64,000 nucleotides of DNA from Candidatus Omnitrophota bacterium (GCA_041662125.1 JBAZTA010000004.1:343-64342); one strand, 5' to 3'; shown: positions 26,472 to 55,041, counted from the stretch's first letter. The notes: generated by a model not told the origin, from the sequence alone. Program-made: numbers and translations.

Positions 26472-27902
26472 TCAGAGAATTTGATGATCGGGGATTTTTG
26501 TTAATAATTCCTTTGCCTCCCCTATTACAAACATAGAACCTGTAATAAGGATAACATCATCGCGCTGGGCAATTTTTTGAGCCAATGATAAAGCGGTTTT
26601 AACATTAACAACAACCCGGACACAATCGTCAGCGATCATACCTTCCATCCGCAAGAAAATATCCTGGGGCTTTGCTGCCCGGTTGTTCTGAGCTTTGGTA
26701 AGCATGACCTTCTGACTCAAAGGAACCAGGGCTTTACATATGCCGGCAATATCTTTATCCCGGGAAATCCCTAATACAAGAATTACTTTTTTGCCAGGGA
26801 ACAACTTTACCAACGACTGTTTAAGCATCTCTGCGGAAGCGGCATTGTGAGCGCCGTCTAAAATGATCCATGGCTCTCTCGATATGATCTCAAATCTTCC
26901 CGGCCAAAGCGTATTATATAAACCATTTTTACATGCCTTTTCTGAGACGCTTACGTGATAATATTTCTTGAGCGCCCCTACGATTCCCAGCGCCACTGAA
27001 GCATTGATCAATTGATGCTCTCCTAATAAAGGCGTACGCATCTTATGAAAATTCCCTAAACGGCCGCTGACTGAGAACTCCTGATAATCAAGCCGGCTCT
27101 GCAGTAATCGATATCTGATATCACTGCCGACTTTATAGAGTGGCGCCGGCAGGCTGGAACATTTTAGTTCAATCACTTGTAGCGCTGCCTTTTCCTGCGG
27201 CGCGGTAATCACGACAGGGCGTTTCCCTGCCTCTCCTGAACGCTCTGGCGCTTTAATAATGCCTGCTTTCTCTGTGGCAATCGCAGCAAGTGTAGACCCA
27301 AGTTTATGCGTATGGTCATAACTGATAGAAGTAATCGCGCAAACAAGGGAATCAACCACATTAGTAGAATCGATCCTCCCCCCTAACCCGGTTTCTAAGA
27401 CGACAAAATCGGCATGCTTCTCTTTATAATATACAAAGGCTACAATCGTCAGGACCTCAAAAAAAGTCAGCGGGCCGTATTTCGACGTACGGTTATACCG
27501 GTTTATCAATGGTTTTAAGCCTTGTGTCAGCCGCACCAGCTCTTTCTCGGATATCATTCCTTCAAAATCTTTTTTCACACCCCCGCGCATCCGCACAAGA
27601 GGCGGCTGCTTTGATCGCATAAGAACCCTGATCCTCTCCCTGACATTAAACAAATGCGGCGAAGTAAAAAGCCCGACAATATATCCTGCCTCACGCAGCA
27701 TATACGCTACCATCGCACAAACCGACCCCTTGCCCTTGGTACCGGCGACATGAATGATCTTAAGGCTATCCTGAGGATTATGTATGCTCGTTAAGAAATC
27801 CTTGATACGCTCCAGCTTCAAAGATTGCTTATACGGATAATGAACCTTTTTCTCGTAATTGATAAAAGAATTTAAATACTGCAGTGTCTGCTGATATGTC
27901 AT
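26472..27902 (-). CDS. folC: Bifunctional folylpolyglutamate synthase / dihydrofolate synthase
   Basis: Mur-ligase P-loop HVAGTKGKGS. TSPHLFNVRERI motif. Overall FolC architecture. Confidence 0.85.
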   Translation of the reverse strand: MTYQQTLQYLNSFINYEKKVHYPYKQSLKLERIKDFLTSIHNPQDSLKIIHVAGTKGKGSVCAMVAYMLREAGYIVGLFTSPHLFNVRERIRVLMRSKQPPLVRMRGGVKKDFEGMISEKELVRLTQGLKPLINRYNRTSKYGPLTFFEVLTIVAFVYYKEKHADFVVLETGLGGRIDSTNVVDSLVCAITSISYDHTHKLGSTLAAIATEKAGIIKAPERSGEAGKRPVVITAPQEKAALQVIELKCSSLPAPLYKVGSDIRYRLLQSRLDYQEFSVSGRLGNFHKMRTPLLGEHQLINASVALGIVGALKKYYHVSVSEKACKNGLYNTLWPGRFEIISREPWIILDGAHNAASAEMLKQSLVKLFPGKKVILVLGISRDKDIAGICKALVPLSQKVMLTKAQNNRAAKPQDIFLRMEGMIADDCVRVVVNVKTALSLAQKIAQRDDVILITGSMFVIGEAKELLTKIPDHQIL

Positions 27903-27920
27903 AACGGGGATATGAAGCGT

Positions 27921-29480
27921 TTAATGTTTAAAGTGGCGCACGCCTGTCAGGACCATAGCAATGGTATGTTTATCACAGGCCTTAATGATCTCGGGATCGG
28001 CGATAGAGCCGCCCGGCTGAATAATTGCGCGCACCCCTTTTTTTGCCGCTTCCAAGATTGAATCCGGCTTAGGAAAGAAACCATCGGAAGCCAGGCAGGA
28101 ATTGATAGTATTCTTGCCTGCTTTTGTTTTGGCGATAATAACCGAATCAACCCTCGAGCTTTGGCCTGCGCCAATACCGATAGTTTTTGTCCCTTTGGCC
28201 AAAACGATGGCATTTGATTTAACGTGCTTGGCGACTTTCCAGGCGAATAAAAGCGAGTTTAACTGCGCCTGAGTCGGTTTTTTACGGGTAACGGTCTTAA
28301 GATCTTCTTGACGAACGAGCTCAAGATCTTTATCCTGCAATAACAGCCCGCCGGATACTTTTTTAAAATCACAATCCTTGCGCATATCGATGTCTTTCAA
28401 TTCCAGAACCCTCAGATTTTTCTTTACGCTGAAAACCTTTAGCGCGTCGCGGTCAAAACCAGGAGCAATAATACATTCTAAAAACCCGCTCTCGACAATA
28501 ACCCGGGCAGCCTTTGCGTCGACTTGGCGGTTTAAACCCACAATCCCTCCGAACGCAGAAAGAGGGTCGCCCGCAAACGCCTCCTGATACGCTTTGGTTA
28601 TATCCTTTGCTTCGGCGACACCACAGGGATTATTATGTTTTACAATGACTGCTGCCGGAGATAAGAATTCTTTCAGCAATTCCCAGGCGCTGTTTAAATC
28701 AAGGATATTATTAAAAGAAAGTTCTTTGCCCTGTACCTGCCTCAAAGAAGCCATGCCACAAAGCGCCCCCTGGTCCCGGTAAAATGCCGCTGCTTGATGA
28801 GGGTTTTCCCCATAACGCAGATCCTGTATTTTAGTAAACGATAATTCCAGTTTTGCCGGGAAAGAAGTATTGGTGGCTCTGCCACCAATAGCTTTTTTAC
28901 TGAGGTATTGATAAATCGCTTCGTCGTATTGCGCAGTGCTCTTAAAAACCTGCGCTGCGAATCCCCGCGCGGTCTTTTCGCTGACACACCCCTGGGTTTC
29001 CTCCAATTCTTTGATCAATGACGGGTATTGAGAAACAGATGAAACTACCACTACTGAACAGAAGTTTTTTGCCGCCGAACGCAGCATTGACGGGCCGCCG
29101 ATATCGATATTCTCAATAGCCTCTTCTTCGGCAACACCGGGCTTTTGCACGGCCTTTTCAAACGGATAAAGATTAACCACCGCCATATCGATCAAACCGA
29201 TCCCCAAACTTTCAAGTTTTTGAATATGTTCGGGATTTTGACGCACCGCCAGAAGCCCGCCATGGATCTTCGGATGCAGCGTTTTAACTCTGCCGTCGAG
29301 TATTTCCGGAAAACCAGTATAATCGGAAACGTCTTTTACGGCGATACCCTTATCCCTCAATAATTTCGCCGTTCCTCCCGTCGAAAGGATCTCAACGCCG
29401 AACGCATTGAGCGTTTTCGCCAGCTCCACGATACTTGTTTTATCCGATACGCTAATGAGCGCTCTTTTTATTTTTATCAT
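27921..29480 (-). CDS. purH: Bifunctional AICAR transformylase / IMP cyclohydrolase
   Basis: MGS-like N-terminus KRALISVSDKTSIVELAKTL..GVEILSTGGTAKLL. AICARFT core. 519 aa. Confidence 0.9.
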   Translation of the reverse strand: MIKIKRALISVSDKTSIVELAKTLNAFGVEILSTGGTAKLLRDKGIAVKDVSDYTGFPEILDGRVKTLHPKIHGGLLAVRQNPEHIQKLESLGIGLIDMAVVNLYPFEKAVQKPGVAEEEAIENIDIGGPSMLRSAAKNFCSVVVVSSVSQYPSLIKELEETQGCVSEKTARGFAAQVFKSTAQYDEAIYQYLSKKAIGGRATNTSFPAKLELSFTKIQDLRYGENPHQAAAFYRDQGALCGMASLRQVQGKELSFNNILDLNSAWELLKEFLSPAAVIVKHNNPCGVAEAKDITKAYQEAFAGDPLSAFGGIVGLNRQVDAKAARVIVESGFLECIIAPGFDRDALKVFSVKKNLRVLELKDIDMRKDCDFKKVSGGLLLQDKDLELVRQEDLKTVTRKKPTQAQLNSLLFAWKVAKHVKSNAIVLAKGTKTIGIGAGQSSRVDSVIIAKTKAGKNTINSCLASDGFFPKPDSILEAAKKGVRAIIQPGGSIADPEIIKACDKHTIAMVLTGVRHFKH

Positions 29481-29513: not shown

Positions 29514-30245
29514 CTATTTATTAAACCTGAAATTGGCAAGGTCAGCATCCTGCATAATATAATCTTTCTGTTCAAGGCGCTGCTTTCCCGCCTGTTTCGC
29601 CTGCGTTTCACCGCCTGCCTGAATAAAATCATTGAACCCGATAATTTCCGCGCGGATAAAACCTTTCTGAATATCAGAATGTATTACTCCCGCGGCCTCC
29701 CAGGCAGTTGCCCCCTGCTTAAGGCTCCAGGCGCGGTTTTCTTTATCACCAACCGTAAAAAAGCTGATATAACCGCTCTCCTTATATGCCTTGGCTAAAA
29801 CGCTACTTATATCTTCCAACTCCTGTTTCTCGACGCAAACGACCGGTTTACCCGTCACTAAACCATAGCCGGACATCAATTCTTTTTCTTGCGGGGTTAA
29901 AGGAGAACTGAAAATAAATTCCTCTTTTTCCAGGACCGCTTTCAATTTTTGCAACAACGCTTTTTCATCATCTGAAGCGCTGCGGCCCAGGCGGCCTTCG
30001 ACAAATTCCAGGTCCTTGATGATCAAATCAGTGCGGGAATCAGAGAAGGTCAGAATAGCGTCAGCATTCGGGATTTCGTTTTCTCCGACCAACTCAACCT
30101 GGACAGAGGTCTTTTTCTTTGCCTTGACTAATTTATCCACCTGGTCAAGGCGGACATCTTTGATATTTTGTTTCCCTATGGTTATATCCGGGAGAGCATA
30201 AAGAGCGATTTTCATGTTTTTTATGCGTGCATAACTTATGAGCAT
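29514..30245 (-). CDS. YchF/Ola1-like protein lacking the P-loop (G1) region; coiled-coil + TGS (DUF933) C-terminus retained
   Basis: The C-terminus NRAWSLKQGATAWEAAGVIHSDIQKGFIRAEIIGFNDFI...AKQAGKQRLEQKDYIMQDADLANFRFN aligns closely with E. coli YchF [38 protein letters not shown]...KDYIVKDGDVLNFLFN. The N-terminus begins at about YchF residue 35 (DVRLDQVDKL vs DPRLDQLAEI). No GxxxxGKS is present. No upstream space remains, because the EF-G-like gene ends at 30294. Confidence 0.7.
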   Translation of the reverse strand: MLISYARIKNMKIALYALPDITIGKQNIKDVRLDQVDKLVKAKKKTSVQVELVGENEIPNADAILTFSDSRTDLIIKDLEFVEGRLGRSASDDEKALLQKLKAVLEKEEFIFSSPLTPQEKELMSGYGLVTGKPVVCVEKQELEDISSVLAKAYKESGYISFFTVGDKENRAWSLKQGATAWEAAGVIHSDIQKGFIRAEIIGFNDFIQAGGETQAKQAGKQRLEQKDYIMQDADLANFRFNK

Positions 30246-30293: not shown

Positions 30294-32270
30294 TTAGTGG
30301 TGCTCTGCGTGCGCGTGATCCTCTTCGTGTTTCTTGGAAGCCAGGTATTGGCTGATAATCGTAGACGCAATCTTATGCGGGGCTTCTGCGTAATGGGAAA
30401 ACCGCATAGTATAGGAACCGCGGCCGCCGGTAATCGAACGCAGATCATTGGCATAGGTAAACATTTCAGACGCCGGCACTTGCGACTTAACGACCTGGGA
30501 TTTCCCCAAAACATCCATCCCGATCATATGCCCCCGGCGGGAATTGATATCTCCTGATATTGCGCCAAGAAATTCTTCAGGAATAACAACTGCTACATCC
30601 ATAACCGGCTCCAGTAAAACCGGGCCTGCTTCAGCAACCGCTTTTCGCAGAGCCATGGCTCCTGCGATCTGAAAGGCCATGTCGGAGGAATCAACATCAT
30701 GATACGAACCATCGACAAGCGTGACCCTGACATCCACAATCGGATATCCCGCCACCGCCCCTTCGGCGCACGCCTGGCGTATCCCTTTTTCAGCGGAGGG
30801 AATAAAATTTCTCGGGATCGCCCCACCAAAGACTTTATCAAGGAACTCAAAGCCTTTACTTCTTTCTAAAGGCTCGATCTCAATCCACACATCGCCGTAT
30901 TGGCCGCGGCCTCCAGACTGGCGTTTAAACTTCCCCTGCACCCGCGCTTTTTTCGTAATTGTTTCTTTATAGGATACTTTCGGGATGCCGAGGTCGACCT
31001 CGACGTTAAACCTCTTTTTCATCCGCTCAACCATGATCGCCAAATGCAGATCGCCTAACCCGGAAACGATCAACTCTTTAGTCTGCTGATCATGGGTAAC
31101 TTTAAAGGTAAGATCCTCTGCCGCCAGCTTATGCAGGGCATTGGCGATCTTATCCTCGTCATTTCGTGATTTCGGGTTTACCGATGCTGATATCGCCGGC
31201 TCAGGGAACGCAACCGGCTCAAAACGAACAGGGTCTTTTTCGTCAGCAAGCGAATCTGATGTGACGGTATCTTTTAATTTAGAGATAGCGACAATATCTC
31301 CGCAGGATGCAAAATCAACCTGCCGTTGTTCTTTTCCCTGCAGGATATAAATATGGCCGATGCGCTCCTTAACCTGCTTACTCACATTATAGAATGCGGT
31401 ATTGGATAGTAAAGAGCCGGAGAATACGCGCAGAAGCGTCAAATGGCCGACGTATGGATCAGATATCGACTTAAAAACAAAGGCGGAAAAATGAGCTTCA
31501 GGAGAAAGGACGATCTCCCTGGTTTCTTCCGGCTTTAACGGATTACTCGCAGTTACTTTCGCGCGCTCCAAAGGATTCGGGAGATATTTAAGGATCGCAT
31601 CCAAGAACTCCACCACCCCTGTATCAGTAGTAGCGGAACCTGTAAGCACCGGAAAAATCTTTCGTTTGATCACTGCCTGCCGCAGGCTCACCGTTAATTC
31701 TTCCGCTGATAACGCGGCACCGTTCAAATATTTCTCCAGGAGCGTATCATCGCTTTCCGCAACAACTTCCACCAATTCAGGGGCACTCAAATCAGCAATG
31801 ATCACCGCTTTTTTTGAAAGCCTGTTTTGAATATCAGCAACTACCCCTGTAACATCAACCCCTTCTTTATCAGTTTTATTGATAAAAATAATACAGGGTA
31901 ATCCGGCATCCTCTGCCATCTGCCATGCCCGTTCAGTCCCCACTTCAACGCCGGCGGTCACATCGATAACGATCCCCGCGCTATCGACCGCCCGCAGGCC
32001 CGAAAGAACTTCTCCGAGAAAATCCGCGTAACCGGGAGCATCAACAATCTGGATCCGGGAATCCCTGCAATCACAAAACACAAAGCTTGCGTTAATCGAA
32101 CTCTTGCGCGCTATTTCATCAAAACTATAATCGCTCGTGGTAGTTCCGTCGGCGATCGCGCCCTTTCGTGTCGTCGCCTTACAGAGGAAAAGCATGCTTT
32201 CCGCAAGAGAAGTCTTCCCGCACTGCGCGTGGCCTAACAAAATGAGACTGCGCTTATTTTTTACGTCCAT
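30294..32270 (-). CDS. EF-G-family translational GTPase paralog (658 aa) with His-rich C-terminal tail
   Basis: G1 GHAQCGKTS, G3 DAPGYADF, G4 NKTD, G5 GSATT. EF-G domain II-V-like remainder. Ends KKHEEDHAHAEHH. Confidence 0.75.
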   Translation of the reverse strand: MDVKNKRSLILLGHAQCGKTSLAESMLFLCKATTRKGAIADGTTTSDYSFDEIARKSSINASFVFCDCRDSRIQIVDAPGYADFLGEVLSGLRAVDSAGIVIDVTAGVEVGTERAWQMAEDAGLPCIIFINKTDKEGVDVTGVVADIQNRLSKKAVIIADLSAPELVEVVAESDDTLLEKYLNGAALSAEELTVSLRQAVIKRKIFPVLTGSATTDTGVVEFLDAILKYLPNPLERAKVTASNPLKPEETREIVLSPEAHFSAFVFKSISDPYVGHLTLLRVFSGSLLSNTAFYNVSKQVKERIGHIYILQGKEQRQVDFASCGDIVAISKLKDTVTSDSLADEKDPVRFEPVAFPEPAISASVNPKSRNDEDKIANALHKLAAEDLTFKVTHDQQTKELIVSGLGDLHLAIMVERMKKRFNVEVDLGIPKVSYKETITKKARVQGKFKRQSGGRGQYGDVWIEIEPLERSKGFEFLDKVFGGAIPRNFIPSAEKGIRQACAEGAVAGYPIVDVRVTLVDGSYHDVDSSDMAFQIAGAMALRKAVAEAGPVLLEPVMDVAVVIPEEFLGAISGDINSRRGHMIGMDVLGKSQVVKSQVPASEMFTYANDLRSITGGRGSYTMRFSHYAEAPHKIASTIISQYLASKKHEEDHAHAEHH

Positions 32271-32464
32271 ATGCTTAGCACTCCTTTGTAATAATAACGT
32301 TTATGTTAATTATTATTGAGTCAAAGAAAAAAGCAGCATAAGTAGTAAAATATCCGGATTGTATTATATATAGGTAAAATTATATCTCAGAGCCGAAAGG
32401 CGGTCAAGGAAATAAAACATACACGAATTCAACCAGGGAGCAAAAGTTTTTGGTTGATTTTAGA

Positions 32465-33652
32465 TTACTCGAGATAGGTATAGATTTTCCCTTTATAGTT
32501 ACGCAAAACGTACTTGCCTTTTGCCTGGGAAAGCACATAATTGGAACTGATAGGGATCTTTCCACCGCCACCAGGGCCGTCGATAACATAGGTCGGGACA
32601 GCATACCCTGAAGTATGGCCGCGCAGTTTCTCCATAATATTAATGCCCACTGCCACGGGAGTGCGGAAATGGCCGCTGCCCTTTACCGGGTCACATTGAT
32701 AAATATAATACGGACGAACCCTGATCTTGAGCAGATCATGCATCAGTTTACGCATAATATAGGGCCGGTCATTAATACCCTGCAACAAGACAGTCTGGCT
32801 TCCTAACGGGACCCCTGCTTCAGACAGCATGTCGCAAGCGATCTTACAGCGCCTGGTAATTTCTTTCGGATGGTTAAAATGAATACTCATCCAAATCGGT
32901 GAATACTTCTTCAGTGTGGAGATCAACCCTTCAGTAATACGCTGCGGGAGAGTTACCGGAACCCTGGTACCGATGCGCAAGAATTCGACATGCGGTATCG
33001 CGCGCAGTTTCTTCAGCAGGTCACCCAACACATCATCCTCAAGCAATAAGGGATCGCCTCCGGAAATCAATACATCACGGATCTTTTTATTGCCGCGGAT
33101 ATAATCGAGGGCCGCATCCAGCTTATTTAATGAGCCGACCGCGCCGCTATCTTCCTTTCCCACTAACCTTCTTCTGGTGCAATGGCGGCAATACATAGCA
33201 CATTGTTCAGTAACCAAAAGTAGAATACGGTCCGGGTAGCGGTGCACTAAATGGGGAGCGGGAGAATCACGGTCTTCCGCGCATGGATCAACCATTTCGT
33301 AGGGCCCGATCTGAAATTCACTCAACGTAGGAACTGCCTGGCGCCTGATAGGGCAGCGGGTATCTTCCTGATCGATCAAAGTCGCCCAGTACGGGGTAAT
33401 AGCCATTGCCATTCTCCCCTTGGCATTTTTGAGACCTTCTTCCTCTTCAGGAGTAAGCTTAATAATCTGGCTGATTTGCTCTATCTTGGTAACACGGTTT
33501 TTTAACTGCCACCGCCAATCTTCCCAATCCAGCGGATTAACATCCTTATACAAGCTTATCTGCTGGTAATCCCTGCCCCTTTTTCCCGGCCGGGGGGCTG
33601 TTAAACTTTCTGGCAGTAATTTTTGGCTTTCTGTTACCACCGGATTATTCAT
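32465..33652 (-). CDS. KamA-family radical SAM aminomutase (lysine 2,3-aminomutase-like)
   Basis: Radical SAM CxxxCxxC as CAMYCRHCTRRR (KamA: CSMYCRHCTRRR). KIRDVLISGGDPLL. 395 aa with C-terminal Cys/His residues. Confidence 0.85.
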   Translation of the reverse strand: MNNPVVTESQKLLPESLTAPRPGKRGRDYQQISLYKDVNPLDWEDWRWQLKNRVTKIEQISQIIKLTPEEEEGLKNAKGRMAMAITPYWATLIDQEDTRCPIRRQAVPTLSEFQIGPYEMVDPCAEDRDSPAPHLVHRYPDRILLLVTEQCAMYCRHCTRRRLVGKEDSGAVGSLNKLDAALDYIRGNKKIRDVLISGGDPLLLEDDVLGDLLKKLRAIPHVEFLRIGTRVPVTLPQRITEGLISTLKKYSPIWMSIHFNHPKEITRRCKIACDMLSEAGVPLGSQTVLLQGINDRPYIMRKLMHDLLKIRVRPYYIYQCDPVKGSGHFRTPVAVGINIMEKLRGHTSGYAVPTYVIDGPGGGGKIPISSNYVLSQAKGKYVLRNYKGKIYTYLE

Positions 33653-34652
33653 CTTTTGATTTCCTCCTTTTATACGCGCTCATTAATATCGATTCGATCA
33701 AATCATCATAGGTCATTCCCGCCGCATACGCCATGATCGGGAAATTCGATTCTTTGGGATTAAGCCCGGGCAACGGATTTATCTCCAGGACATAGGGGAT
33801 ATTATCCTCACTTAGCCGTATATCCGTACGGGAAATATCGAGGCAGCCAACCGCCCGATGAGTACGTAACGCGACTTCTTTAATTTTCTTTTCTGTTTCT
33901 CTATCCAGGCGTGCCGGGCAATAGAATGTCGGCGTCAACCCCATTTCGACATTCCCCTGGAATTCTTTCATGCGCCAGGAATAAAAATATTCACCGCTCT
34001 TAGCGCAACTCGAAAAATCTATTTCCAAGATAGGCAAAACTTCTGTTTTACCGTTTTCTAAGACACCGACCGTAAACTCTCTGCCTTCGATAAATTCCTC
34101 TACCAATACTTCCTGCTTATAAAAAGAAATGATTTCATTTGCTTTATCAAAAAGCTCTTGCGGTGAATGGACCACGTTTGATTTATTAATGCCTTTGGCG
34201 GAACCTTCGCAATTCGGTTTGAGGATCAAAGGAAAACGCAAAGAGGGATCGAGCTTTTCATTGCCTTTTACTAAGATCTGGAAAGGCGGCGTGGGAATAT
34301 TTTCCGCTTTCAGGATCTTTTTGGTAAGCGCCTTATTTAAAGCCAGCGCCAACGAAAGGGTATTAGAACCGGTATAGGGAATATTCAAATAATCCAAGAT
34401 CGCCGGGACCTCGGATTCACGGAACTTACCGTGGTTTCCCTCGGCAATATTAAAGACCATATCAGCGCTATGCTTCTTGAAGAAAGAGAATAGGTTTGAA
34501 CGCTCCACATCAACATAGTCGACACTATGCCCCCGGGACCGCAGCGCGGACGTGATCGCGTGGATAGTCTCTTCGGAATCAAATTCGGAATAATAATCCG
34601 CAGGCTTTGTTTCGTCTTCTTTTTTAAGGTTACACGTCAGGGTAATCTTCAC
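33645..34652 (-). CDS. ATP-grasp ligase, D-Ala-D-Ala-ligase-like (copy 1)
   Basis: Ddl-size (335 aa). ATP-grasp motifs FPLILKPNCEGSAKGI, EEFIEGREFTVGVL, YVLEINPLPGL. Confidence 0.75.
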   Translation of the reverse strand: MKITLTCNLKKEDETKPADYYSEFDSEETIHAITSALRSRGHSVDYVDVERSNLFSFFKKHSADMVFNIAEGNHGKFRESEVPAILDYLNIPYTGSNTLSLALALNKALTKKILKAENIPTPPFQILVKGNEKLDPSLRFPLILKPNCEGSAKGINKSNVVHSPQELFDKANEIISFYKQEVLVEEFIEGREFTVGVLENGKTEVLPILEIDFSSCAKSGEYFYSWRMKEFQGNVEMGLTPTFYCPARLDRETEKKIKEVALRTHRAVGCLDISRTDIRLSEDNIPYVLEINPLPGLNPKESNFPIMAYAAGMTYDDLIESILMSAYKRRKSKDE

Positions 34653-34672
34653 CCTGCCCTTCCTTTCCTTTT

Positions 34673-35665
34673 TTACGTAAGATTATAGCGTTTCAAGGCG
34701 CTTCTTAAAATCCTGCCAATAATTTCATTGTACGAAATGCCAAGAGCCTTGGCGACGGCCATAAACACATCTTCCGAAGATAGCGACGGCAGCGGATTGA
34801 TCTCCAAGACATAGGGTTTACCTTTTTCATCAACCCGGAAATCAATCCTGCCAAAATCCTGGCATTCGATCGCGTTATAGGTGTCAAGCGCCAGGCTGCT
34901 TAATTCAGCAGCCAATTCCGGCTTTATTTTTGCCGGGCAGACATATTCTAAAGCATCCGACTTAATATGCCCAAACGTATAGAATTTATCATTAAGTTTT
35001 AATTTCCCGTCGATCTTGATCTGCACGATCGGCATGACTTCCGGAGGGTCGTTGCCGATGATGGCAACGGTAAATTCTTCCCCGCGGATGAATTCCTCAA
35101 CCAGCGCAGGCTGCTTATACGTATTAATCACATACTCAACCTGCTTTTTTAATTCTTCCATATTCTCCACGCGCGAATTATCATTCATCCCTTTCGAAGA
35201 CCCTTCAAACCTGGGTTTAACGATCATAGGAAAACGAGCATGGTCCATATCCGGAAAAGGGTTGTCATCAGGCTTGACTTCAAAAGATTTCGGCGTCCTG
35301 ATATCATCGGCAATAAAGATCTTTTTTGCCATCAGCTTATCAAGCGATAATCCCAAACTCAAGGCGTCAGCGCCGACAAAAGGAATACCCGCCATCTCAA
35401 GCAAAATCGGGACCTGCGACTCACGGTTCCTGCCGGAAATCCCTTCGGAGATATTAAAGACAATGTCAACTTTGAGATCGCTGATATTATCCAAGAGATT
35501 CATTACATTGCCGATCTTCTTTACCTTAAACCCCTGAGACTCAATCGCCTTTGCGATAACATCGATGGTCGAGGGGTGGTCAAATTCGGCATTCGCGTCC
35601 GGAGGATCGCCCTCTTTGAATTCGTAATCAGTTTTTAAATCGTATGTTAAGCCGATTGTTTTCAT
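34673..35665 (-). CDS. ATP-grasp ligase, D-Ala-D-Ala-ligase-like (copy 2, paralog of 33645-34652)
   Basis: FPMIVKPRFEGSSKGM, EEFIRGEEFTVAII, YVLEINPLPSL. 330 aa. Confidence 0.75.
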   Translation of the reverse strand: MKTIGLTYDLKTDYEFKEGDPPDANAEFDHPSTIDVIAKAIESQGFKVKKIGNVMNLLDNISDLKVDIVFNISEGISGRNRESQVPILLEMAGIPFVGADALSLGLSLDKLMAKKIFIADDIRTPKSFEVKPDDNPFPDMDHARFPMIVKPRFEGSSKGMNDNSRVENMEELKKQVEYVINTYKQPALVEEFIRGEEFTVAIIGNDPPEVMPIVQIKIDGKLKLNDKFYTFGHIKSDALEYVCPAKIKPELAAELSSLALDTYNAIECQDFGRIDFRVDEKGKPYVLEINPLPSLSSEDVFMAVAKALGISYNEIIGRILRSALKRYNLT

Positions 35666-35882
35666 CGCATATAAAAAATAAAGGCTCTTCCCATATAGAG
35701 CCTTTTAAAGTTTTTACCTGATTTTTCCAATGTCCCTACCTATCCTCCCTAAAAAAATTAATAAATACTACACTGTTACATTTAATTTTTTATCACATCT
35801 ATCAAGTTTGTCAAGTATTTTCTATCGACGGGAAAAAAGCGCGGGGAAAAAATTTTTTCACCACAGCGAATTATATGAAGTA

Positions 35883-36620
35883 TTACGCCGTAAATTCAAT
35901 ATTTCCCCAGCTGGCAAAACGATCGCCAAACACTATAACAGCGCCGCTGATACCTTTAAGCGACCGGGCAAAATCGATTGCAGCGGGCAAATCTTCCTGC
36001 GTATGCACGCGGTTACCGACCGCAGTAGCAGCGGCATCAGCCAATGACGCATCTGCGGCAATAATAACAACGCTGTCGGCGCAGCCAAAACTTAGTGAAT
36101 GCCCGACGGTACCTGATGACGTACAAATTCCCATCGGTTTAATCCCTGGCTTTATTTTAAGACAGATCTTTTGCGATAACACAGAACTCCCCGAATAAAT
36201 ACTCAAAATTCTAGGTTGAGTTGTTTTTAAGAAAATGTCCCCCCCATTTTCAATAATAACATCTCTATACCCCTTACGCAGGAGGGATGTTCCCAAAAAC
36301 TTTGCGATTGCACCTGCGACTGCCGCCATTGGCCCAACATTTGCCTGGAGAGCGGCCCGGCCCATATCCCTGACGATCAAAGGAGCCGTTTTTTCCACAG
36401 CAAGCGGAGAGAGGCTCGTCAGGAAACGATGGTCTTTCTGGATATAGCCTTCAATGTGCCGGCGAAGCAAACGGATCTTGTCCTCAACGAAATCTTTATC
36501 AACCGGTTTATCGGTCAAAATATGCAGGTCGGTCTCTTGCACCGCAACTTCGGCCTTGCATAATCCCGAAGCCTTCACCCAATCCCGATAAGATCTTTTC
36601 TGGTATTTATCGCTTTTCAT
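35883..36620 (-). CDS. UPF0280-family (ApbE-superfamily-like) protein
   Basis: 245 aa with Gly-rich core GPMAAVAGAIA, resembling the archaeal/bacterial UPF0280 family. Recognition is weak. Confidence 0.4.
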   Translation of the reverse strand: MKSDKYQKRSYRDWVKASGLCKAEVAVQETDLHILTDKPVDKDFVEDKIRLLRRHIEGYIQKDHRFLTSLSPLAVEKTAPLIVRDMGRAALQANVGPMAAVAGAIAKFLGTSLLRKGYRDVIIENGGDIFLKTTQPRILSIYSGSSVLSQKICLKIKPGIKPMGICTSSGTVGHSLSFGCADSVVIIAADASLADAAATAVGNRVHTQEDLPAAIDFARSLKGISGAVIVFGDRFASWGNIEFTA

Positions 36621-36673
36621 TTATTCGTTAGTATCGTTATGTTCGTTTAAATCGTTGAACGACATTAACGATA

Positions 36674-37312
36674 TTAACCCTTTATCTCTTCTATCGTAAT
36701 GCCGCAGACAGCGAGATCTTTTATAAGCTGCGCAGTGCCCTGGTACACAAATGCCCGGATGCCCAGCGTACGGGCCTTGGCGACTAAATCCGCCCGATCG
36801 TCGAGGTAAAACGCCTCCGACGGGATCACTCCCAATACGGACATTGTTTGAGCATAAATCTGAGGATGGGGTTTCGTCAATCCGGTCTCAAAAGAAGTAA
36901 CGATGTGGGGAAAAATATCAAAAATCTCAAATTGTTTTTTGATATACTCAAAATGCAAAATATTGGTATTAGTGAGAACCGCCACTTTATAATCCTGCCG
37001 CAGGCGCGCCGCTATTTGCGCCGTAGACACATTATCTTCTGTCAAAAAAAAGATCTCGTTCCATATCGGCTTGAAAGCTTTATAGCTAAGAGAAAGTCGC
37101 AGCGTTTTTTTTATCTTTAAGAAAAACTCATGCGGCCTGACCCTGCCTTCTTCAAAAAACTTCAGAAGTTTAACCGATCCAAACACAAGCGAGGAAATTT
37201 GCTCGGGATTTTTGTCCGTAAAAGCGGATATCCGGGACACCGCCCGCATAGTATCAAAACTGACCAAGACATTACCCAAGTCAAAAATAATAGCTTTGAT
37301 ACGAACGCTCAT
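36674..37312 (-). CDS. HAD-superfamily hydrolase/phosphatase
   Basis: Motif I IIFDLGNVL (DxG), motif II LTNT, C-terminal YLDD. Confidence 0.75.
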   Translation of the reverse strand: MSVRIKAIIFDLGNVLVSFDTMRAVSRISAFTDKNPEQISSLVFGSVKLLKFFEEGRVRPHEFFLKIKKTLRLSLSYKAFKPIWNEIFFLTEDNVSTAQIAARLRQDYKVAVLTNTNILHFEYIKKQFEIFDIFPHIVTSFETGLTKPHPQIYAQTMSVLGVIPSEAFYLDDRADLVAKARTLGIRAFVYQGTAQLIKDLAVCGITIEEIKG

Positions 37313-37329
37313 AGTATGCTGAATAAGGG

Positions 37330-38301
37330 TTAATTATTGATATCCCTGGATTTCTTAAATAAGTCGAGGAACCGGTCTTCGTATTCCCGGTAGACATTCC
37401 ATTTATCCAGTTCAGCTTTTAATTGATGGGCTTTTGAGATATCCGTCTTTGCATCAACAAAAAGCTTTTCAATTTTTTCTTTCACGGACTGCGGAAGCTT
37501 GGTGAGCTGGCTTAAACTTTTCCTTATCATTTCAATCTCTTCTTCATTGATAGGGGCAGGGGATGCGGAGCCGCCGACTTTTAAGAAATCCATCAGCTTG
37601 TTGATTTGTTCCTCTACCCCATGGATCTGTTCAACCAGGCCGGTGAAATCTATCTGCAGGTTAATGATCTTGCCGACAGTCTCCAAAAGGGCAAGCGAAG
37701 CACGGGGGTTCTCGATCTGAATAGTGTACAGAGGGATTTCACCTAAAAGGCAGATCCCATCCAAACCTTCTCGTTTTGCCAGGCCTAAAAACAGGCCATT
37801 CAAACCGCTGATCTGGCCTTCGGATAATACCTGAAAATCGAACTTTTTCAAACCGGCGTTGAGCTGCGGCGACGTCGCGGTTAACCATACGTTCGGCGCT
37901 TGGTTATGGTCAATGGGCTGCGGCATAGCAGCAAAACCGATCACCATCTTGACTTTATATGCCTTGGCCAAAGAAATGATCCGTTTACAGTATTCTTCGG
38001 CCTGTTCTAAATCCGGCTGCGAATCACTGGCAAAGATGATCAGGTCATTTTTACCCGTTTTATTCTTCCAGAAATAAAATTTGCTTTTCGGCAACTCCGG
38101 CAACCGCAAAATTCCGTCTACAACATTACTTCCCGTTAAATAAAAAAAATCTTCCGGGGGGATCTCTGCGAATTCCGAAGCCATGAGCTTCTCAATAAGA
38201 TACGTTGCCGCTTTGATCGCGACCTCTCCCATTCCGGGCCATGCTACAATTAAATACGGGCTCTTCAGCCGCGGTTTTTTATGTACCGTAATACCTTCCA
38301 T
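37330..38301 (-). CDS. PAC2-family protein (COG1938/DUF75)
   Basis: LIVAWPGMGEVAIKAATYLIEKL and the later GLNGLFLGLAKREGLDGICLLGEIPLY match the PAC2 family pattern G.PG.G.VG..A, then GLL.G.A...G. Recognition is by pattern only. Confidence 0.5.
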   Translation of the reverse strand: MEGITVHKKPRLKSPYLIVAWPGMGEVAIKAATYLIEKLMASEFAEIPPEDFFYLTGSNVVDGILRLPELPKSKFYFWKNKTGKNDLIIFASDSQPDLEQAEEYCKRIISLAKAYKVKMVIGFAAMPQPIDHNQAPNVWLTATSPQLNAGLKKFDFQVLSEGQISGLNGLFLGLAKREGLDGICLLGEIPLYTIQIENPRASLALLETVGKIINLQIDFTGLVEQIHGVEEQINKLMDFLKVGGSASPAPINEEEIEMIRKSLSQLTKLPQSVKEKIEKLFVDAKTDISKAHQLKAELDKWNVYREYEDRFLDLFKKSRDINN

Positions 38302-38334
38302 AGCAGAGGCTCCTTAATAGCCAATACGTTAAGG

Positions 38335-39459
38335 CTAAAATTTAAAATCTGTTAAAAACTTCTCTAAGACTACCGTTCCCTGATAAAGGTTATCCAGCGA
38401 AACATATTCATTACTGATATGGGCGCAACCTTCGGAACCAAAACCCGTTGCCACCGCCGGAATTGACTGCTCCTGAAAGAACGTAATGACGGTCGCTCCT
38501 TCTGAACCGCAAATCCTCGGTTTTATCTTACAGGCGCGCATTGCCGCAGTCAAATATTTTACCAACGGATGCCCTTGATCGATACAATACGGTTTTTGGA
38601 TCCCTTCAACTTCTATTACGAATTTCCGGCTGTGCTTCTTAACAATATCTTTTACCATGCGCAAAAGAGAACCGGCCTCTGTCCCGGGCAAAAACCGGAA
38701 ATCAAGCTCAAGTTCACACCAATCGGCAACCACATTGACTTTATCACCGCCCTTAATGGTTCCGACATTGAGCGTCGGAGGCAACAAATACCGGTTTTTT
38801 CTAAAACGCATTTTCCTGCTTTTCAACTCTGCAACTATCCTGACCGCGGCATCAATAGCGTTATCGCCGCGCCACGGATAAGCACCATGAGCTCTTTTGC
38901 CTTCAAGTTTGACCTTGACGTGCAAAAGCCCCTTCTGGGCGACAATGATCTCAAATTCTTCTGTATCAAGCACGACAGCCGCGTCTACTTTGATTATACT
39001 CTTTTTAAGCAAGGGAATCAATCCCCAGGTAGACCCGCTTTCTTCGTCAGCTGTGGCAGCAAGCACCAGATTATAATACAAACCTGCCTTATTTTCAACA
39101 ATACTATGTATTGCTTCTACTGCGCAGGCAAGGTTTCCTTTACAATCGGTTGCACCGATGCCATAGAGTTTATTTTGCACAACCACGCCGGCAAAAGGGT
39201 CACAACGCCATTTTCTGCCGGCAGGAACCGTATCTAAATGCGGAGTTACCAGTAATGAATGGTGCGTATCCTTACCCAGTAAATACGCTATCACATTAGG
39301 ACGGTTTTTCTTAAATGCAACTATTTTTACGCGCAGGCCCAATTTTTCAAGATACGTTTTTAGGAAACAGGCAATTGCCGTTTCATTACCCGGAGGATTT
39401 TGAGAATCAATTTTTATTAACTGCCGAGTAAGATCTATCAATCGTTTCTTATTGATCAT
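38335..39459 (-). CDS. M20-family metallopeptidase/deacylase (ArgE/DapE-like)
   Basis: HLDTVP, GATDCKG, ATADEESGS and a dimerisation-domain insert. 374 aa. Confidence 0.8.
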   Translation of the reverse strand: MINKKRLIDLTRQLIKIDSQNPPGNETAIACFLKTYLEKLGLRVKIVAFKKNRPNVIAYLLGKDTHHSLLVTPHLDTVPAGRKWRCDPFAGVVVQNKLYGIGATDCKGNLACAVEAIHSIVENKAGLYYNLVLAATADEESGSTWGLIPLLKKSIIKVDAAVVLDTEEFEIIVAQKGLLHVKVKLEGKRAHGAYPWRGDNAIDAAVRIVAELKSRKMRFRKNRYLLPPTLNVGTIKGGDKVNVVADWCELELDFRFLPGTEAGSLLRMVKDIVKKHSRKFVIEVEGIQKPYCIDQGHPLVKYLTAAMRACKIKPRICGSEGATVITFFQEQSIPAVATGFGSEGCAHISNEYVSLDNLYQGTVVLEKFLTDFKF

Positions 39460-39487: not shown

Positions 39488-42309
39488 TTAGAACGCGTGG
39501 CTCAAACCCACCCAAAAATGCGTGCTCTCTTTTGAGTCATTAATAGGCCGGGCAATATCAAAGCGAAGCACCACCTTTTCCAGAAACCCGACGATATCAA
39601 AATGCAGGCGCAGCCCTACCCCTGCGTTTTTCTTAAAGTTGGCTGATCCAAAATCGTTATACCAGGCCTTAGCGATATCAAAAAACCCGACTGCCTGGAT
39701 CTTATTCAGGCAAAAAACATTATCCAAGAAATACATTTTCATATCGCCGCAGAGCGGAAAACGGTATTCCGCTGACCCTAACATCATGCGCGAGCCCTCT
39801 ACCGTTTCCCTGCCATACCCTCGCAAACCATCCGCGCCGCCGAGATCAAAAAGGCCCTTTTCACCCGAACCTCCCCATCCAACCTTCAGGCGTGTCGCTA
39901 ATTTCTGTGAAAACTTAGGTAAAAGCAAACGGTAAGTATCTAATTCTAAACTCGTGCGCCAAAAAGATTCATTTCCTCCCAGGAAGTGGCCTGCGAATTC
40001 CTGCTGAGGGATTAATTTCCAGCCATAATCCGGGTCTGAATACGGGCCATACCGGCACAACGAAGCAGCCAACCCCAGGATTGTTTCATCAGTCTTCCTA
40101 TAGACGATATTACGCGCGTCTTCTGCGCCATTAACACTGACCTGCTGGTCAAGTTTTTGATCCTTCAAAAGATACAAGGTAACATGATCATTCAGGTCAA
40201 AAATACCATAGCGCGCCGGCCATAATTCGCGCCGGATATACAGCTTGCCCCCAGATACATCTTGACGGCCCAAACGATACTGGCGGTTAAAAACATCCAC
40301 TCCTACAGATACCTGTTTATTAAAAAGATGGGGAAATTCATAGCCTGCCGTATATTCTGATTCTTTATCATTAAAATTATAGAGAGAAGAAACTTTCACT
40401 AATCCGTCATAGGGTTTTGCCGCAGATGCCGCCGCCCCAAGCCACTGTCCACGCAGATCAGGGCCAAGAACCACATTATAAGATCCATCCGGCATAAGCG
40501 AAGGTATCTCATAGGCGAAAAAGTACCAGGGGACTGGTTTAAGGAAAATATTCCTCGGCCACGAATTGTTTACCCGGTCTAAATCCAGGATGATCTTTTT
40601 ATCAGGGTCTACAACGACTTTTGAAACAGTTTTCCCCCCGGTAAGAGGTATGGGTATATTTTTCCCCGCCCCATCCCACGGGAAAATGCTCTCTGTCCCG
40701 TCATGATAGGTGATCTTTGTTTCTACCGGCATTACTATCAAACCGCGGTTTTCTAAAATAAATGCGCCGCGGGCAACCGGCTTAACAGCGTAATCGCAAG
40801 CCTGCTTAGTCTTAAGCCATCCGTGAAAGAACAGCGTAAGATCTTTCCCCGACTCTTCATTACAGATCCTCATAAAATCATCAAAACTAAAATTCTTAAA
40901 CCTGAATTCCCCGGTATAACGTTTCATAACACCTTCAAATACCTGGCTGCCAACCTCGGCATTGAGCATCTCTAAAACAGCTGCCCCTTTGCCATAGGTC
41001 AAAGCAAATATTGATGACGGCTCCTGAAAACTCGAAAGGTCGCTCACAACCGGCCCGTCGAGGCCGTTTTTCGCTAAATACAGGTAGCGAGCGACTGTTG
41101 AGCCGTGAAAAGAAAAGTTGGGAACAAGCCATCGTATCCCTGGCGGTAAGGTCAAAACTTGAGCATCAGGCCCATAGGTATGCTCTAAATAGCGCAATAT
41201 CCAATATGAATTCATACCTTCATCAAGGAACATCTCCCTGTATTCATCAGAACCAATGATATTATAAAACCACTGATGGCCGGTTTCATGCGCTATCAAG
41301 AAATTAAAATACCGCTCTAAGAATCCCGGCACGCGATAAACACGGGTATCAATAAATATAAAACAGGAAGACTGGCATCCGCCGTAGCCTAAATAACTAG
41401 GGACTATGGAGAATGCTTTATACGGATATGACCCAAAACGCTCGGCGTAATACCGCATTAATGAGGCCGCGTACGAAGCCGCAGCAACAGCTCTTTTTTC
41501 GTCACCTTTAAGATAATATGATTGGATCGTCACCTCACCGGAAGCTATGGAATGGACTAAAAAAGATTTGCTGACTCCCAAAGCAAAATCCCTGACCGGG
41601 AATTCAGTCTCCATCATCAGGGTTTTTGTCCCGTCAGGATTGTCTGTTTTGGTTTTTACCAAAGCCGTAGAAGCTACAACTTCATCCTGAGGAAGCGTAA
41701 GGGTAACTTTGTAGTAAGAGGCTTCACTGAAATACGGCTGATGATAGATATAAAAAGGATAATTGTGCCAGCCGGACTTATCCACTACGCTTAAAAGCGG
41801 ATACCAGCGGGCAAGGCTGGTGATCCCCTGATGCCAGCCGAACCTGCCGTACGCATGGGGGATATCTACCTTAAAATCTAAGATGATCTCTTGTGAATCT
41901 CCGGGTTTAAGCGATGAATCAAGTCCAACCTTAAGAATTGTCTGATCATCCCCTTCCATACGATAAGAAAGAACATTGCCGCGAGAGGATATTTTTTCTA
42001 TTTTTAAATCGCCTCCCTGAAACCCTTCAGGGAAAGGATCCATCTTAAAATAACCGGCATAGCGGTACATAAAGCCAATTTCTTTCTTTGTATACCGGCG
42101 ATGAGGATAAACGTGAAAATACAGGGCGTCAAGGGCCGTATCGGAATTATTGGTAAATATTACTTTCTGGCTTGCGGTGATCGTGTGATTTTTGGTATCA
42201 AGCCGTGCGGTGATCTCATACCGGGGACACTCAGCGGCGAAAGAAAGCAAAAAGTTAAAGAGGCAGAAAAAAAGTGAAAAAAATAATACCACCTTTAAGC
42301 TCTTATTCA
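39488..42309 (-). CDS. M1-family (aminopeptidase N-like) zinc peptidase domain fused to a C-terminal Omp85/surface-antigen beta-barrel
   Basis: Signal peptide MNKSLKVVLFFSLFFCLFNFLLSFAAE (probable start near 42309; the longest ORF extends to 42481). Gluzincin motif HETGHQWFYNIIGSDEYREMFLDEGMNSYW, i.e. HExxH...W..N..(18)..E. C-terminus DLGGADGLRGYGRE...GVGLRLHFDIVG...WVGLSHAF ends in Phe like outer-membrane barrels. Confidence 0.7.
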
Positions 42310-42347
42310 TGCTTATCCTCATTCTATAATCCCACAATTGTGATCCC

Positions 42348-44300
42348 TTAGTTCTCAAGTTCCAAAGGATTATAATTATAATACGCGAACAACGTATACA
42401 CCGTGCCTGAAACAGCTCCTGTCTTTTTTCCCGCCGGAGTAGACCATCCATGCCCGGTATCAACGGATTCCGCAGAAGCATACGGCAGGCATCCTTCCCC
42501 CTGGCCTGAAGGCGAAGGGCTAGAAATTATCAACGTACACAAATCGACCATATATTCATTTGCTTTCTGATCATAGACTTTGGCCTTGCCCAGCATATCT
42601 TTTTTCTTATAATAATTTGACATTATTTTAAACGACAAGATCATCTGAGCGGTCCATTCGGTAGAAATCACTCCTCCCCGGGAGAGATGCCTCTGTGGAG
42701 CAAAATCAAAGCCTTTGATCTTAATCGCTTCGCCTGACGGACCGACCGAGGGGACTTCGACCACGCAATTTTCCTCGGCAAATTCAATGATTTTATCGGG
42801 ATGCATCCTATTCTCTTCCAATTTTTCAGGGCCCAGCGCCGCGATCGCCCAGGCATACGTATCGGTAGCGATCGTTGAATCTCCTTTACCGCGGATAATC
42901 GGAATATCTACCTTATCATAAATATGCCCGATCAACCAACGAAACACCCTGTCCCGCGCCTCTGCGTACAACTGATTTTTGGTTATGGTATACAACATAT
43001 CGAAAAACGCGTAAGCATCCAGGTTATGCTCGGTAGAATACCAGCTGATATTAGGGCCGCCGCGGATGCCGCCTTCTTCATCTTGGCCCTGCAAAGTAAT
43101 CATCACCTGAGCGATTTCCTCAGCTAACCGCATATATTTGGTATCCTGTGTTTTCTTTGTATAGTGCAACACCGCGATCCCCAGCCAGATATTAGGGCCG
43201 CTGTGCACAATATATTCTGCGGGGCTGCCGTCTTTAGCATCATAGGCATTGACAAATAACCCCTCTCTTCGCTTTGCTTTGTGCGCGTAGAATTCCAATG
43301 TTTTCCTGGCGCGCTCATAATCGGAAAAGTTCGTGTAAGCCTGAATTGCCAGAGACTGGTCATACGTAAACGCCCAGCCGTCAACTTGCGCATCGCCTTC
43401 AAAGCTCATCACCAGGCCTGTCCGGGGATTTTGATGCAACGCCAGCCATTGATACATTTTATTGAAATTTTCTTTCTGCAAAACAGATTTCTTCTCATCT
43501 AAACGCAATAATTCTTCCGTCACCGTGGTCTCACGGTGTTGCAAATCGATCAGCTTCTCCTGGAGCGGAGCTTTTTCCTGCCTCAACTGCTCAATTAATT
43601 TCCTAAGCTCTTCTACTTTCTTGCCGGTCTTGGCCTCCTCTAATTTAGTACCTTCTTCAAGAAAAGTTTTCTCATCTTCCACGGTCTTAATACGCACCTG
43701 TAACGCTTCTATCTTACGCTGCAAATCTTCTTTATCTTTATTAATGGAGGTGATCTTTTGTTTGGCGATAATTGATTCCTGCAAGATATTAACCAGCTGA
43801 CTGATCAAACTTTTATTGCCCTGAATGAGTTTTGCGTTGACATAGCTGTTAAAAACGAGTGCTGCGGAAAAAATAAGAATTATCGAATAGACTACAGGAA
43901 TGAATAATTTTTTCATCCACACATAACGCATGAGCCGAGTATTACCGCTGCGTTCGATGGAATCATAATTTAAACCGATAAGGTACTTATTGGCATTAAC
44001 CGCGACATCTTTGATCCAGGAAACGCTTGCCCGGGCAAAAACCGGCTGCCGGCCTAAAGGGCTTTCGATTTCTAAGATAACCCGGGTTGATTGGCTCTTC
44101 ATCGTCTGAATCAACTCAGAGGAAAGGTTATTAACGCGCAGGCACAAGCCTCCTTTTCCTATATCATTCGTAAAACCCTGCAGCCAAACAGAAAGAAAAG
44201 ACTGCTCATCGGCAGCACCTACTAACCGGAACTGAACCGGAAATACCGAATCAAGCCTGACATATTTTCGACGGTTGAGAGCTTCGTGATCAATCTCCAT
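42348..44300 (-). CDS. PilZ - TM - coiled-coil - (alpha/alpha)6 glycoside-hydrolase/epimerase-like domain protein
   Basis: N-terminal RRKYVRL and DIGKGGLCL (PilZ). One TM segment (LFIPVVYSIILIFSAALVF). An approximately 120-aa coiled coil. The C-terminal 350 aa carry a six-hairpin-like repeat pattern; the family is uncertain. Confidence 0.55.
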   Translation of the reverse strand: MEIDHEALNRRKYVRLDSVFPVQFRLVGAADEQSFLSVWLQGFTNDIGKGGLCLRVNNLSSELIQTMKSQSTRVILEIESPLGRQPVFARASVSWIKDVAVNANKYLIGLNYDSIERSGNTRLMRYVWMKKLFIPVVYSIILIFSAALVFNSYVNAKLIQGNKSLISQLVNILQESIIAKQKITSINKDKEDLQRKIEALQVRIKTVEDEKTFLEEGTKLEEAKTGKKVEELRKLIEQLRQEKAPLQEKLIDLQHRETTVTEELLRLDEKKSVLQKENFNKMYQWLALHQNPRTGLVMSFEGDAQVDGWAFTYDQSLAIQAYTNFSDYERARKTLEFYAHKAKRREGLFVNAYDAKDGSPAEYIVHSGPNIWLGIAVLHYTKKTQDTKYMRLAEEIAQVMITLQGQDEEGGIRGGPNISWYSTEHNLDAYAFFDMLYTITKNQLYAEARDRVFRWLIGHIYDKVDIPIIRGKGDSTIATDTYAWAIAALGPEKLEENRMHPDKIIEFAEENCVVEVPSVGPSGEAIKIKGFDFAPQRHLSRGGVISTEWTAQMILSFKIMSNYYKKKDMLGKAKVYDQKANEYMVDLCTLIISSPSPSGQGEGCLPYASAESVDTGHGWSTPAGKKTGAVSGTVYTLFAYYNYNPLELEN

Positions 44301-54097: not shown

Positions 54098-54112
54098 CAT
54101 AGGCAGAAACAA

Positions 54113-55024: not shown

Positions 55025-55041
55025 ATCCTCTCCTTTTTAAT

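Follow-up and report, generated by a model that had tools for sequence, protein, structure and literature searches.

A ligase–aminomutase operon of Omnitrophota with a conserved leader: a probable source of a small β-lysine-containing peptide

To our knowledge, the recorded occurrences of β-lysine are few: an acetylated osmolyte, the modification of elongation factor P (EF-P), an intermediate of fermentation and a handful of antibiotics. Among the described systems closest to the locus reported here, AblA/AblB (methanogens and some bacteria) makes Nε-acetyl-β-lysine, EpmB/EpmA β-lysylates EF-P and PylB/PylC belongs to the pyrrolysine pathway. Carnosine synthase is an ATP-grasp ligase that couples a β-amino acid to an α-amino acid, and such peptides are hydrolysed by an S58 enzyme (DmpA/BapA) (general knowledge; PMC9235088). 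The present locus lies in a 64 000-nucleotide stretch of DNA from a Candidatus Omnitrophota bacterium (GCA_041662125.1 JBAZTA010000004.1:343-64342; the whole 64-kb stretch is called the window below) and comprises genes for two ATP-grasp ligases, AgA and AgB, and a KamA-type lysine 2,3-aminomutase. An original prediction, made from the sequence of the window, had read these three genes and four others as a single pathway. Taken jointly with the β-lysine peptide reading given below, it is rather more probable that the functional unit is the three-gene operon AgA-AgB-KamA (35665-32465, minus strand) and not the set of seven.

The aminomutase–ligase operon

The three genes were assigned as open reading frames (ORFs) with Pfam and NCBIfam family matches and are given here in transcription order.

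35665-34673, minus strand: ATP-grasp A (AgA), a Ddl-fold ligase
34652-33645, minus strand: ATP-grasp B (AgB), a paralogue of AgA
33652-32465, minus strand: KamA, a lysine 2,3-aminomutase dependent on radical S-adenosylmethionine (SAM) chemistry and pyridoxal phosphate (PLP)

The proteins of the window were compared by tblastn with 86 Omnitrophota loci. KamA came after AgA in 64/64 loci of sufficient length and AgB was present in 66/72; AgB is absent from a few deep lineages (also from L092 and L093), in which KamA directly follows AgA. The triad is the best conserved part of the region, with median identities of 71-73%, as against 63% for PurH, 60% for M20 and 47% for HAD. Since the triad is more conserved than PurH, its product is probably important to Omnitrophota physiology.

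An exact look-up of the KamA sequence gave no record, but the protein has 100% identity to a cluster (P0001) that NCBI assigns to Candidatus Omnitrophota. KamA aligned with the lysine 2,3-aminomutase of C. subterminale (2A5H) with E = 1.7e-143 and 56% identity (residues 32-395). Its CAMYCRHC segment (CxxxCxxC) falls on C125-C132 of 2A5H and its VIDGPGGGGKI segment on the PLP lysine K337 (GGGGK loop); the equivalents of Arg134, Asp293 and Asp330 are conserved (YQCD and VID segments). Asp293 and Asp330 hold the ε-ammonium group of lysine and are replaced in glutamate 2,3-aminomutase. With the AblA equivalog model TIGR03820, KamA scored 525.4, equal to the cut-off of 525.4, positions 6-360 of 417 in the profile being matched; the C-terminal ∼50 residues of the clostridial enzyme are missing. 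The subfamily model TIGR00238 was clearly passed (361 against a cut-off of 199), the score with the EpmB model TIGR03821 was below its cut-off (242.3 against 369.3 bits) and the models for glutamate and arginine 2,3-aminomutases were missed by far. Asp293 and Asp330 are kept in nearly all KamA proteins linked to these ligases, the exception being the fusion protein P0331, in which Asp293 is replaced by Gln. The specificity of KamA, lysine or glutamate, and a possible grouping with EpmB were points on which the original prediction had been made to turn; on both, residues and models support a predicted lysine-type aminomutase, of the clostridial/AblA type rather than the EpmB type.

AgA and AgB are 40% identical paralogues which match only the C-terminal Pfam domain of Ddl, the N-terminal one being undetected. 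Both have the three-domain ATP-grasp fold, and its catalytic (ATP/Mg) Lys/Arg/Asp/Glu/Asn set is invariant in the alignments of both paralogues. Their best scores with Ddl models were 203.5 (AgB) and 182.2 (AgA) against a cut-off of 243, and 162-166 against 245.7 with TIGR01205; being below all curated Ddl cut-offs, they stand apart from the ordinary Ddl of peptidoglycan synthesis, as the pathway proposal needed. The signature of AgA is AEFD ... FNIxEGxxGRNRES ... E-x-NPLP. In the ligase family, F-N-x-x-E-G-x-x-G-R-x-R-E-S replaces the His63/GEDG region of Ddl, the position of His63 being Glu74 and the GEDG loop becoming GRNRES; the A-E-F-D motif sits at the segment of Ddl Glu15, the positions of the D-Ala2 pocket are acidic and those of Ser281/Leu282 are Asp/Val in AgA. 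With its invariant Arg and Glu/Asp, the altered substrate site would fit a partner that carries a charge, for example Asp, Glu or Lys. By fold, the Ddl enzymes that form dipeptides come nearest, with RimK and LysX also among the structural neighbours, and AgA gave a weak match to the TTL-family Pfam domain; the structure and NCBIfam comparisons turned up neither a closer solved structure nor a curated family specific to AgA or AgB. To judge by these features, AgA would be a Ddl-fold ATP-grasp ligase of an uncharacterised subfamily.

A search with AgA against 1.84 billion cluster representatives (50%-identity clusters) gave 1,047 clusters at E < 1e-30. A scan of contig collections was filled by Omnitrophota, with no other phyla among the matches listed, and other lineages were reached through the 50%-identity representatives and a metagenome scan. 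Of the best 150 family representatives, 47 have at least 520 residues; most of these are tandem double ATP-grasp proteins and a few carry another N-terminal extension, and no Pfam domain was detected in the N-terminal extensions of some ATP-grasp relatives. Two proteins are fusions with KamA, P0319 (KamA::ATP-grasp) and P0331 (ATP-grasp::KamA). Downstream of the gene for P0319 (locus L091) come an ATP-grasp::GNAT fusion and Na+/H+ exchangers, and the gene for P0331 (locus L090, 5022-9258) adjoins a GntC/VioD-like (capreomycidine-synthase-like) PLP enzyme and a RaSEA-like radical-SAM protein; the L090 locus resembles a small natural-product cluster, and with its altered Asp293 position P0331 may act on a different substrate. 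The metagenome scan was seeded with distant single-domain relatives (∼40% identity to AgA) and gave 80 loci. Among the 45 of these with at least 4 kb and a called ligase gene, KamA lay within 3 kb of the ATP-grasp gene in 23, two ligase genes were present in 16 and a small GNAT stood alongside in seven, with gene orders such as 'Ag Ag GNAT KamA' and 'GNAT KamA Ag'. The links to KamA are spread over three separate subclusters of the ligase family. The pairing of aminomutase and ligase is real, recurrent and ancient.

In Myxococcota and Bdellovibrionota the family takes the form of a fused double ATP-grasp protein (∼680 residues), always followed by a peptidase of family S58 (DmpA/BapA) (L087 8001-11173, L088 8001-11173, L089 8001-11432). 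This looks like an uncharacterised peptide synthesis-and-hydrolysis pair, possibly for a peptide with D- or β-amino acids. In one further non-Omnitrophota lineage (L136, L139, L140, L145, L159 and L170) an arrangement recurs in which TatC, on the opposite strand, is followed by an ATP-grasp gene, a PAS histidine kinase, a sigma-54-dependent response regulator, a single-domain response regulator, KamA, a second ATP-grasp gene and a PUA-domain methyltransferase.

The linkage and the KamA::ATP-grasp fusions argue for functional coupling of aminomutase and ligases, and we regard it as the likelier case, by some distance short of certainty, that the triad builds an undescribed small peptide containing β-lysine. 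KamA would convert L-lysine to β-lysine, probably the (S) form to judge by its similarity to the clostridial enzyme. Each of the two Ddl-fold ligases would activate a carboxylate as an acyl phosphate before an amide bond is formed, and the small soluble peptide that takes up β-lysine in this way would be a dipeptide where a lineage has one ligase; with two ligases, either a tripeptide or two products would result. We infer that β-lysine would be a direct substrate of the ligases; the partner amino acid or acids, the role of the product (a cytoplasmic solute or nitrogen-rich metabolite as against an envelope precursor) and the signal answered by the leader described below stand on the same footing. 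The original prediction of a β-amino-acid peptide made by an aminomutase and ligases is upheld, by linkage and fusions, for AgA-AgB-KamA; as a pathway of seven genes it is not.

Promoter, leader and operon ends

The triad is preceded by a gap of 217 nucleotides (35666-35882) that separates AgA from the UPF0280 gene. The promoter expected in this gap was found, both by a promoter scan and by its conservation among the Omnitrophota loci. The signals around the triad are as follows.

35785..35814, minus strand: sigma-70-type promoter of the triad, TTGACA plus an extended -10 element (TGTGATAAAAAAT), with 10/12 matches in the scan and an A-rich tract before it
35673..35757, minus strand: conserved 5' leader, a candidate attenuator or cis-regulatory RNA (alignment and covariance model)
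32429..32457, minus strand: hairpin just 3' of the KamA stop codon
32407-32379, minus strand: near-consensus promoter of an elongation factor G (EF-G)-like gene, TTGACC, 17 nucleotides, TATAAT (promoter scan)

A promoter block of the form CTTGACAA-N~13-TTGTGATAAAAAAT is kept upstream of the leader in most of the Omnitrophota loci inspected. The leader starts ∼30 nucleotides downstream of the -10 element and consists of GGAGG, 13-15 AT-rich nucleotides, AA(A/G)TTG(G/A)AAAA, a further 10-25 nucleotides and a GC-rich hairpin with a U-tract. In the window this terminator-like hairpin lies at 35705-35680 and the leader ends 8 nucleotides ahead of the AgA start codon, which, unlike those of the neighbouring genes, has no Shine–Dalgarno sequence. 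RNAalifold, applied to the leader alignment, gave nine pairs, and at four of these divergent lineages show compensatory changes. With 38 leaders as its seed, a covariance model matched 1.31 Mb of Omnitrophota loci 63 times, once in each locus and always immediately ahead of AgA; 25 of these matches are in loci that the seed did not include. In 85 other loci (0.68 Mb) the model matched only L163, a locus of the Omnitrophota type. The leader pattern occurs a single time in the window. Rfam 15, run on the window at the gathering threshold, gave no match to the leader (the lysine riboswitch included), and a search of 32200-36000 by E-value returned just two chance-level matches to long noncoding RNAs.

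Transcription would run from this dedicated strong promoter through a leader that ends in a terminator hairpin before AgA. Because the terminator hairpin stands directly before an AgA start without a Shine–Dalgarno sequence, attenuation-type control is implied and is the probable mode of regulation of the triad operon. The 3' end of the operon was placed at the hairpin after KamA because this hairpin precedes the near-consensus promoter of the next gene. The conserved promoter, the leader and the 3' hairpin together mark the triad as an independent operon.

Other explanations of the leader were considered. It was not the end of a small gene: a 59-residue ORF ending in AATTGA is present in L004, half of the loci read TTGG without a stop, and an ORF of this kind is absent from the window. 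Nor was there support for a conserved leader peptide with the TTG as its start: its length ranges from 3 to 22 codons, its stop is not conserved and conservation does not reach beyond the first two or three codons (E/K, K/N); an upstream ORF of non-conserved length that begins at this TTG is possible. The spacing of the GGAGG...TTG motif, judged by inspection only, does not fit a sigma-54 or other alternative promoter. In several loci (L005, L011, L015, L016, L018 and others) a short insert with the inverted repeats CATAACTTATG ... CATAAGTTATG stands between the leader hairpin and AgA; this may be a small mobile or repetitive element.

Neighbouring genes and competing readings

The remaining four genes of the original set were assigned in the same way as the triad and are transcribed ahead of it, in the order M20, PAC2, HAD and UPF0280, followed by the gap.

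39459-38335, minus strand: M20 deacylase
38301-37330, minus strand: PAC2
37312-36674, minus strand: HAD
36620-35883, minus strand: UPF0280/ApbE-like
35883..39459, minus strand: the block M20-PAC2-HAD-UPF0280, variable neighbours outside the core (locus comparison)

All seven ORFs are present on the minus strand at the coordinates given by the original prediction, and Pfam and NCBIfam agreed with each of its family assignments. Its gene order needed correction: KamA, named there as the first gene, is the last of the set in transcription order, and its overlap of 8 nucleotides is with the second ligase gene, AgB, not with the first. That the genes are co-directional is true and carries no weight, because the minus strand holds all real genes of the window. 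GC skew is negative throughout, in line with a single coding strand, and G+C is flat at 0.43-0.47. The earlier hint that PAC2 and UPF0280 had been acquired horizontally was not supported, given their recurrence across the Omnitrophota loci and the absence of a compositional signal.

Upstream of AgA, M20 was found in 30/49 Omnitrophota loci, PAC2 in 34/49, HAD in 29/49 and UPF0280 in 21/49 (43-69%); in L043 and L058 the four are displaced, ∼5 kb off. They are variable neighbours only and lie outside the core. Directly upstream of M20 (39488-42481, minus strand) a fusion of an M1 aminopeptidase with an Omp85 outer-membrane β-barrel, ∼950-1000 residues long and of unusual architecture, is kept in several Omnitrophota loci (also L003, L005 and L092).

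Downstream of the triad lie an EF-G paralogue (30294-32270, minus strand; 658 residues, its G-domain match ∼45 residues short) and, after it, a 243-residue protein (29514-30245, minus strand) that matches the C-terminal domain of YchF alone, the GTPase domain being absent. The two genes are served by a near-consensus promoter of their own and are found again in roughly two thirds of the Omnitrophota loci. The triad also has folate and one-carbon surroundings, with PabB and a PabC-like gene upstream (46774-49016, minus strand) and PurH and FolC downstream (26472-29480, minus strand); in several other loci MnmE and GTP cyclohydrolase I are found downstream. In the deep-lineage locus L093 (2424-11071) the order is ATP-grasp, KamA, a 190-residue protein, PabB, PabC, PurH, a 178-residue protein and FolC. 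This neighbourhood may reflect inherited gene order or a functional link.

Elsewhere in the window, 49789-50682 (minus strand) encodes a stand-alone 297-residue protein that corresponds to the C-terminal aminoacyl-tRNA transferase (double-GNAT) domain of phosphatidylglycerol lysyltransferase and has no NCBIfam match; it is a further lysine-related enzyme, ∼10 kb from the triad. The window also holds a V/A-type ATPase operon, tRNA-Asp and tRNA-Val (54112-54370) and two sets of type IV pilus or type II secretion genes (639-22798 and 54566-61662, both minus strand), which include two T2SSE ATPases, T2SSF, a PilM-PilN fusion, PilZ/MshEN proteins and three secretin-related ORFs, two with the secretin domain and one with N-terminal secretin domains only.

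Several points weigh against a β-lysine peptide as the product of the triad. The assignment of a substrate to the ligases draws on gene context and fusions. The fusions with KamA are rare, with one or two sequences of each kind, and the gene order within P0331 is that of the AgB-KamA overlap, so that a frameshift artefact is possible. The tandem ATP-grasp loci of Myxococcota and Bdellovibrionota lack KamA, and the family is therefore not confined to β-lysine. Omnitrophota are mostly from freshwater or groundwater samples, settings in which an osmolyte would have no evident role, and the very strong conservation of the triad could point to an essential structural or translational role. This last point is shared with a reading in which the ligases put β-lysine on a protein (EF-P, another translation factor or a ribosomal protein) as an ATP-grasp analogue of EpmA or RimK. 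The EF-G paralogue and the YchF C-terminal domain protein directly downstream (in 34/55 and 38/53 loci), the weak TTL-family match of AgA and the presence of RimK and LysX among the structural neighbours would agree with it. It is unlikely all the same: KamA is of the clostridial/AblA and not the EpmB type, the EF-G-like gene has its own promoter and is linked in only part of the Omnitrophota, the closest folds are dipeptide-forming Ddl enzymes and the partners of the ligases elsewhere (small GNATs, the S58 aminopeptidase, Na+/H+ exchangers and natural-product-type enzymes such as the GntC/VioD-like PLP enzyme) belong with small molecules. The same partners and the fusions speak against addition of β-lysine to a cell-envelope precursor, for instance the stem peptide or the cross-bridge of peptidoglycan. 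Amino-acid addition to peptidoglycan precursors by ATP-grasp enzymes is known, and the Ddl-family fold and phylum-wide conservation would fit such a role, but no mur, ddl or fem genes were found in the window or the syntenic loci, and the idea is quite improbable.

The pathway of seven genes, in which M20 would deacylate or recycle the β-lysine peptide, is about as doubtful as protein β-lysylation. In the window its genes lie side by side with little space between them, M20, PAC2 and HAD stand together upstream of AgA in 28/49 Omnitrophota loci and hydrolases such as the S58 peptidase accompany the ligase family elsewhere. Against this, the four genes are absent or kilobases off in about one third to one half of the loci, UPF0280 being often missing; the conserved promoter and leader stand between them and the triad; none of M20, PAC2, HAD and UPF0280 is among the recurrent neighbour families of the ligase/KamA pair in the other-lineage loci; and in a window with a single coding strand the large-scale synteny takes in housekeeping genes as well. 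Of the synteny in relatives on which the original prediction was to be judged, the AgA-(AgB)-KamA adjacency and the fusions stood up, and that of the other four genes was partial. Least probable is a modification of a folate or pterin cofactor tail, for example with β-lysine joined to p-aminobenzoate or a glutamate tail. PurH and FolC after the triad (PurH within reach in 41/48 loci), MnmE and GTP cyclohydrolase I in several loci, the gene order of L093 and PabB with PabC in the window lie on its side; only Omnitrophota-type loci show the association, for which inherited gene order may account, no folate genes occur in the other-lineage loci inspected with the sole exception of L163, itself of the Omnitrophota type, and there is no precedent. 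All of these readings have less support than a β-lysine peptide.

If the β-lysine peptide reading is true, the phylum-wide combination of KamA with dedicated ATP-grasp ligases would be a new β-lysine route, probably to a new metabolite, in a phylum of mostly uncultured bacteria, and would give a function to a large family annotated as 'D-alanine--D-alanine ligase' (∼1,000 clusters at 50% identity, E < 1e-30). As a candidate new regulatory RNA, the leader of AgA is well defined. A bolder proposal, which we hold only tentatively and think rather unlikely as a whole, is that most sampled Omnitrophota make a novel β-lysyl (iso)peptide (for example of a free Nε-(β-lysyl)-lysine type, or a di- or tripeptide of an acidic amino acid and β-lysine) through a new Ddl-like 'β-lysine ligase' subfamily, under the control of a cis-regulatory leader of a new class (perhaps a lysine- or Lys-tRNA-responsive attenuator), and that the same ligase family lies behind widespread unrecognised β-amino-acid peptides in Myxococcota, Bdellovibrionota and other uncultured lineages.

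Comparison with known systems

The module resembles AblA/AblB in that a lysine 2,3-aminomutase of the same subfamily would supply β-lysine, whose amine or carboxyl group would then be modified to yield a small solute, and in that the ligase/KamA clusters of other lineages also include a small GNAT. It differs in its partners, which are ATP-grasp ligases expected to form an amide bond to an amino acid and not acetylating enzymes. The GNATs linked to the module in other lineages gave no match to the AblB model, and no AblB-type GNAT is encoded in the window or next to the triad in the 86 Omnitrophota loci. With EpmB/EpmA it shares a KamA-family aminomutase and an ATP-dependent enzyme that would form a β-lysyl amide; its ligase is an ATP-grasp protein and not a LysRS paralogue, and its KamA falls below the EpmB cut-off. 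Family searches of the window ORFs, which bore out the earlier statement that EpmA and a GNAT are lacking, found neither a LysRS-like EpmA nor an EF-P with an acceptor lysine in the window. Neither the window ORFs nor the syntenic loci yielded the genes of lysine fermentation (the B12-dependent β-lysine 5,6-aminomutase KamDE, Kdd, Kce and Kal).

On the side of the ligases, PylB/PylC offers the likeness of a radical-SAM lysine isomerase with a Ddl-like ligase. From Ddl/VanA the module is set apart by a genomic partner that is KamA and not mur or fts genes, by scores below every NCBIfam Ddl cut-off and by the replacement of the D-Ala-binding residues. The tandem ligases of the AgA family that stand beside an S58 peptidase in Myxococcota and Bdellovibrionota recall carnosine synthase and BapA, but the ATP-grasp subfamily is another one, S58 is unlinked to the module in Omnitrophota and KamA is unlinked in the S58 loci. 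No description of a module of KamA and Ddl-like ligases was found in the searchable literature (ATP-grasp with aminomutase or β-lysine; Omnitrophota aminomutase; β-aminopeptidase with ATP-grasp). The sole precedent met in the literature searched is the negamycin cluster of Kitasatospora, whose general logic resembles that of the module; that cluster makes an actinomycete antibiotic by way of hydroxylase, N-N-bond-forming and methylation enzymes, all of which the module lacks, and the AgA-AgB-KamA module is phylum-wide and not sporadic. The module belongs to none of the AblA/AblB, PylB/PylC, carnosine synthase/BapA and negamycin systems. Phylum-wide and with no match to a curated family or in the searched literature, the module and its leader appear to be a new variation on the β-lysine pathways.

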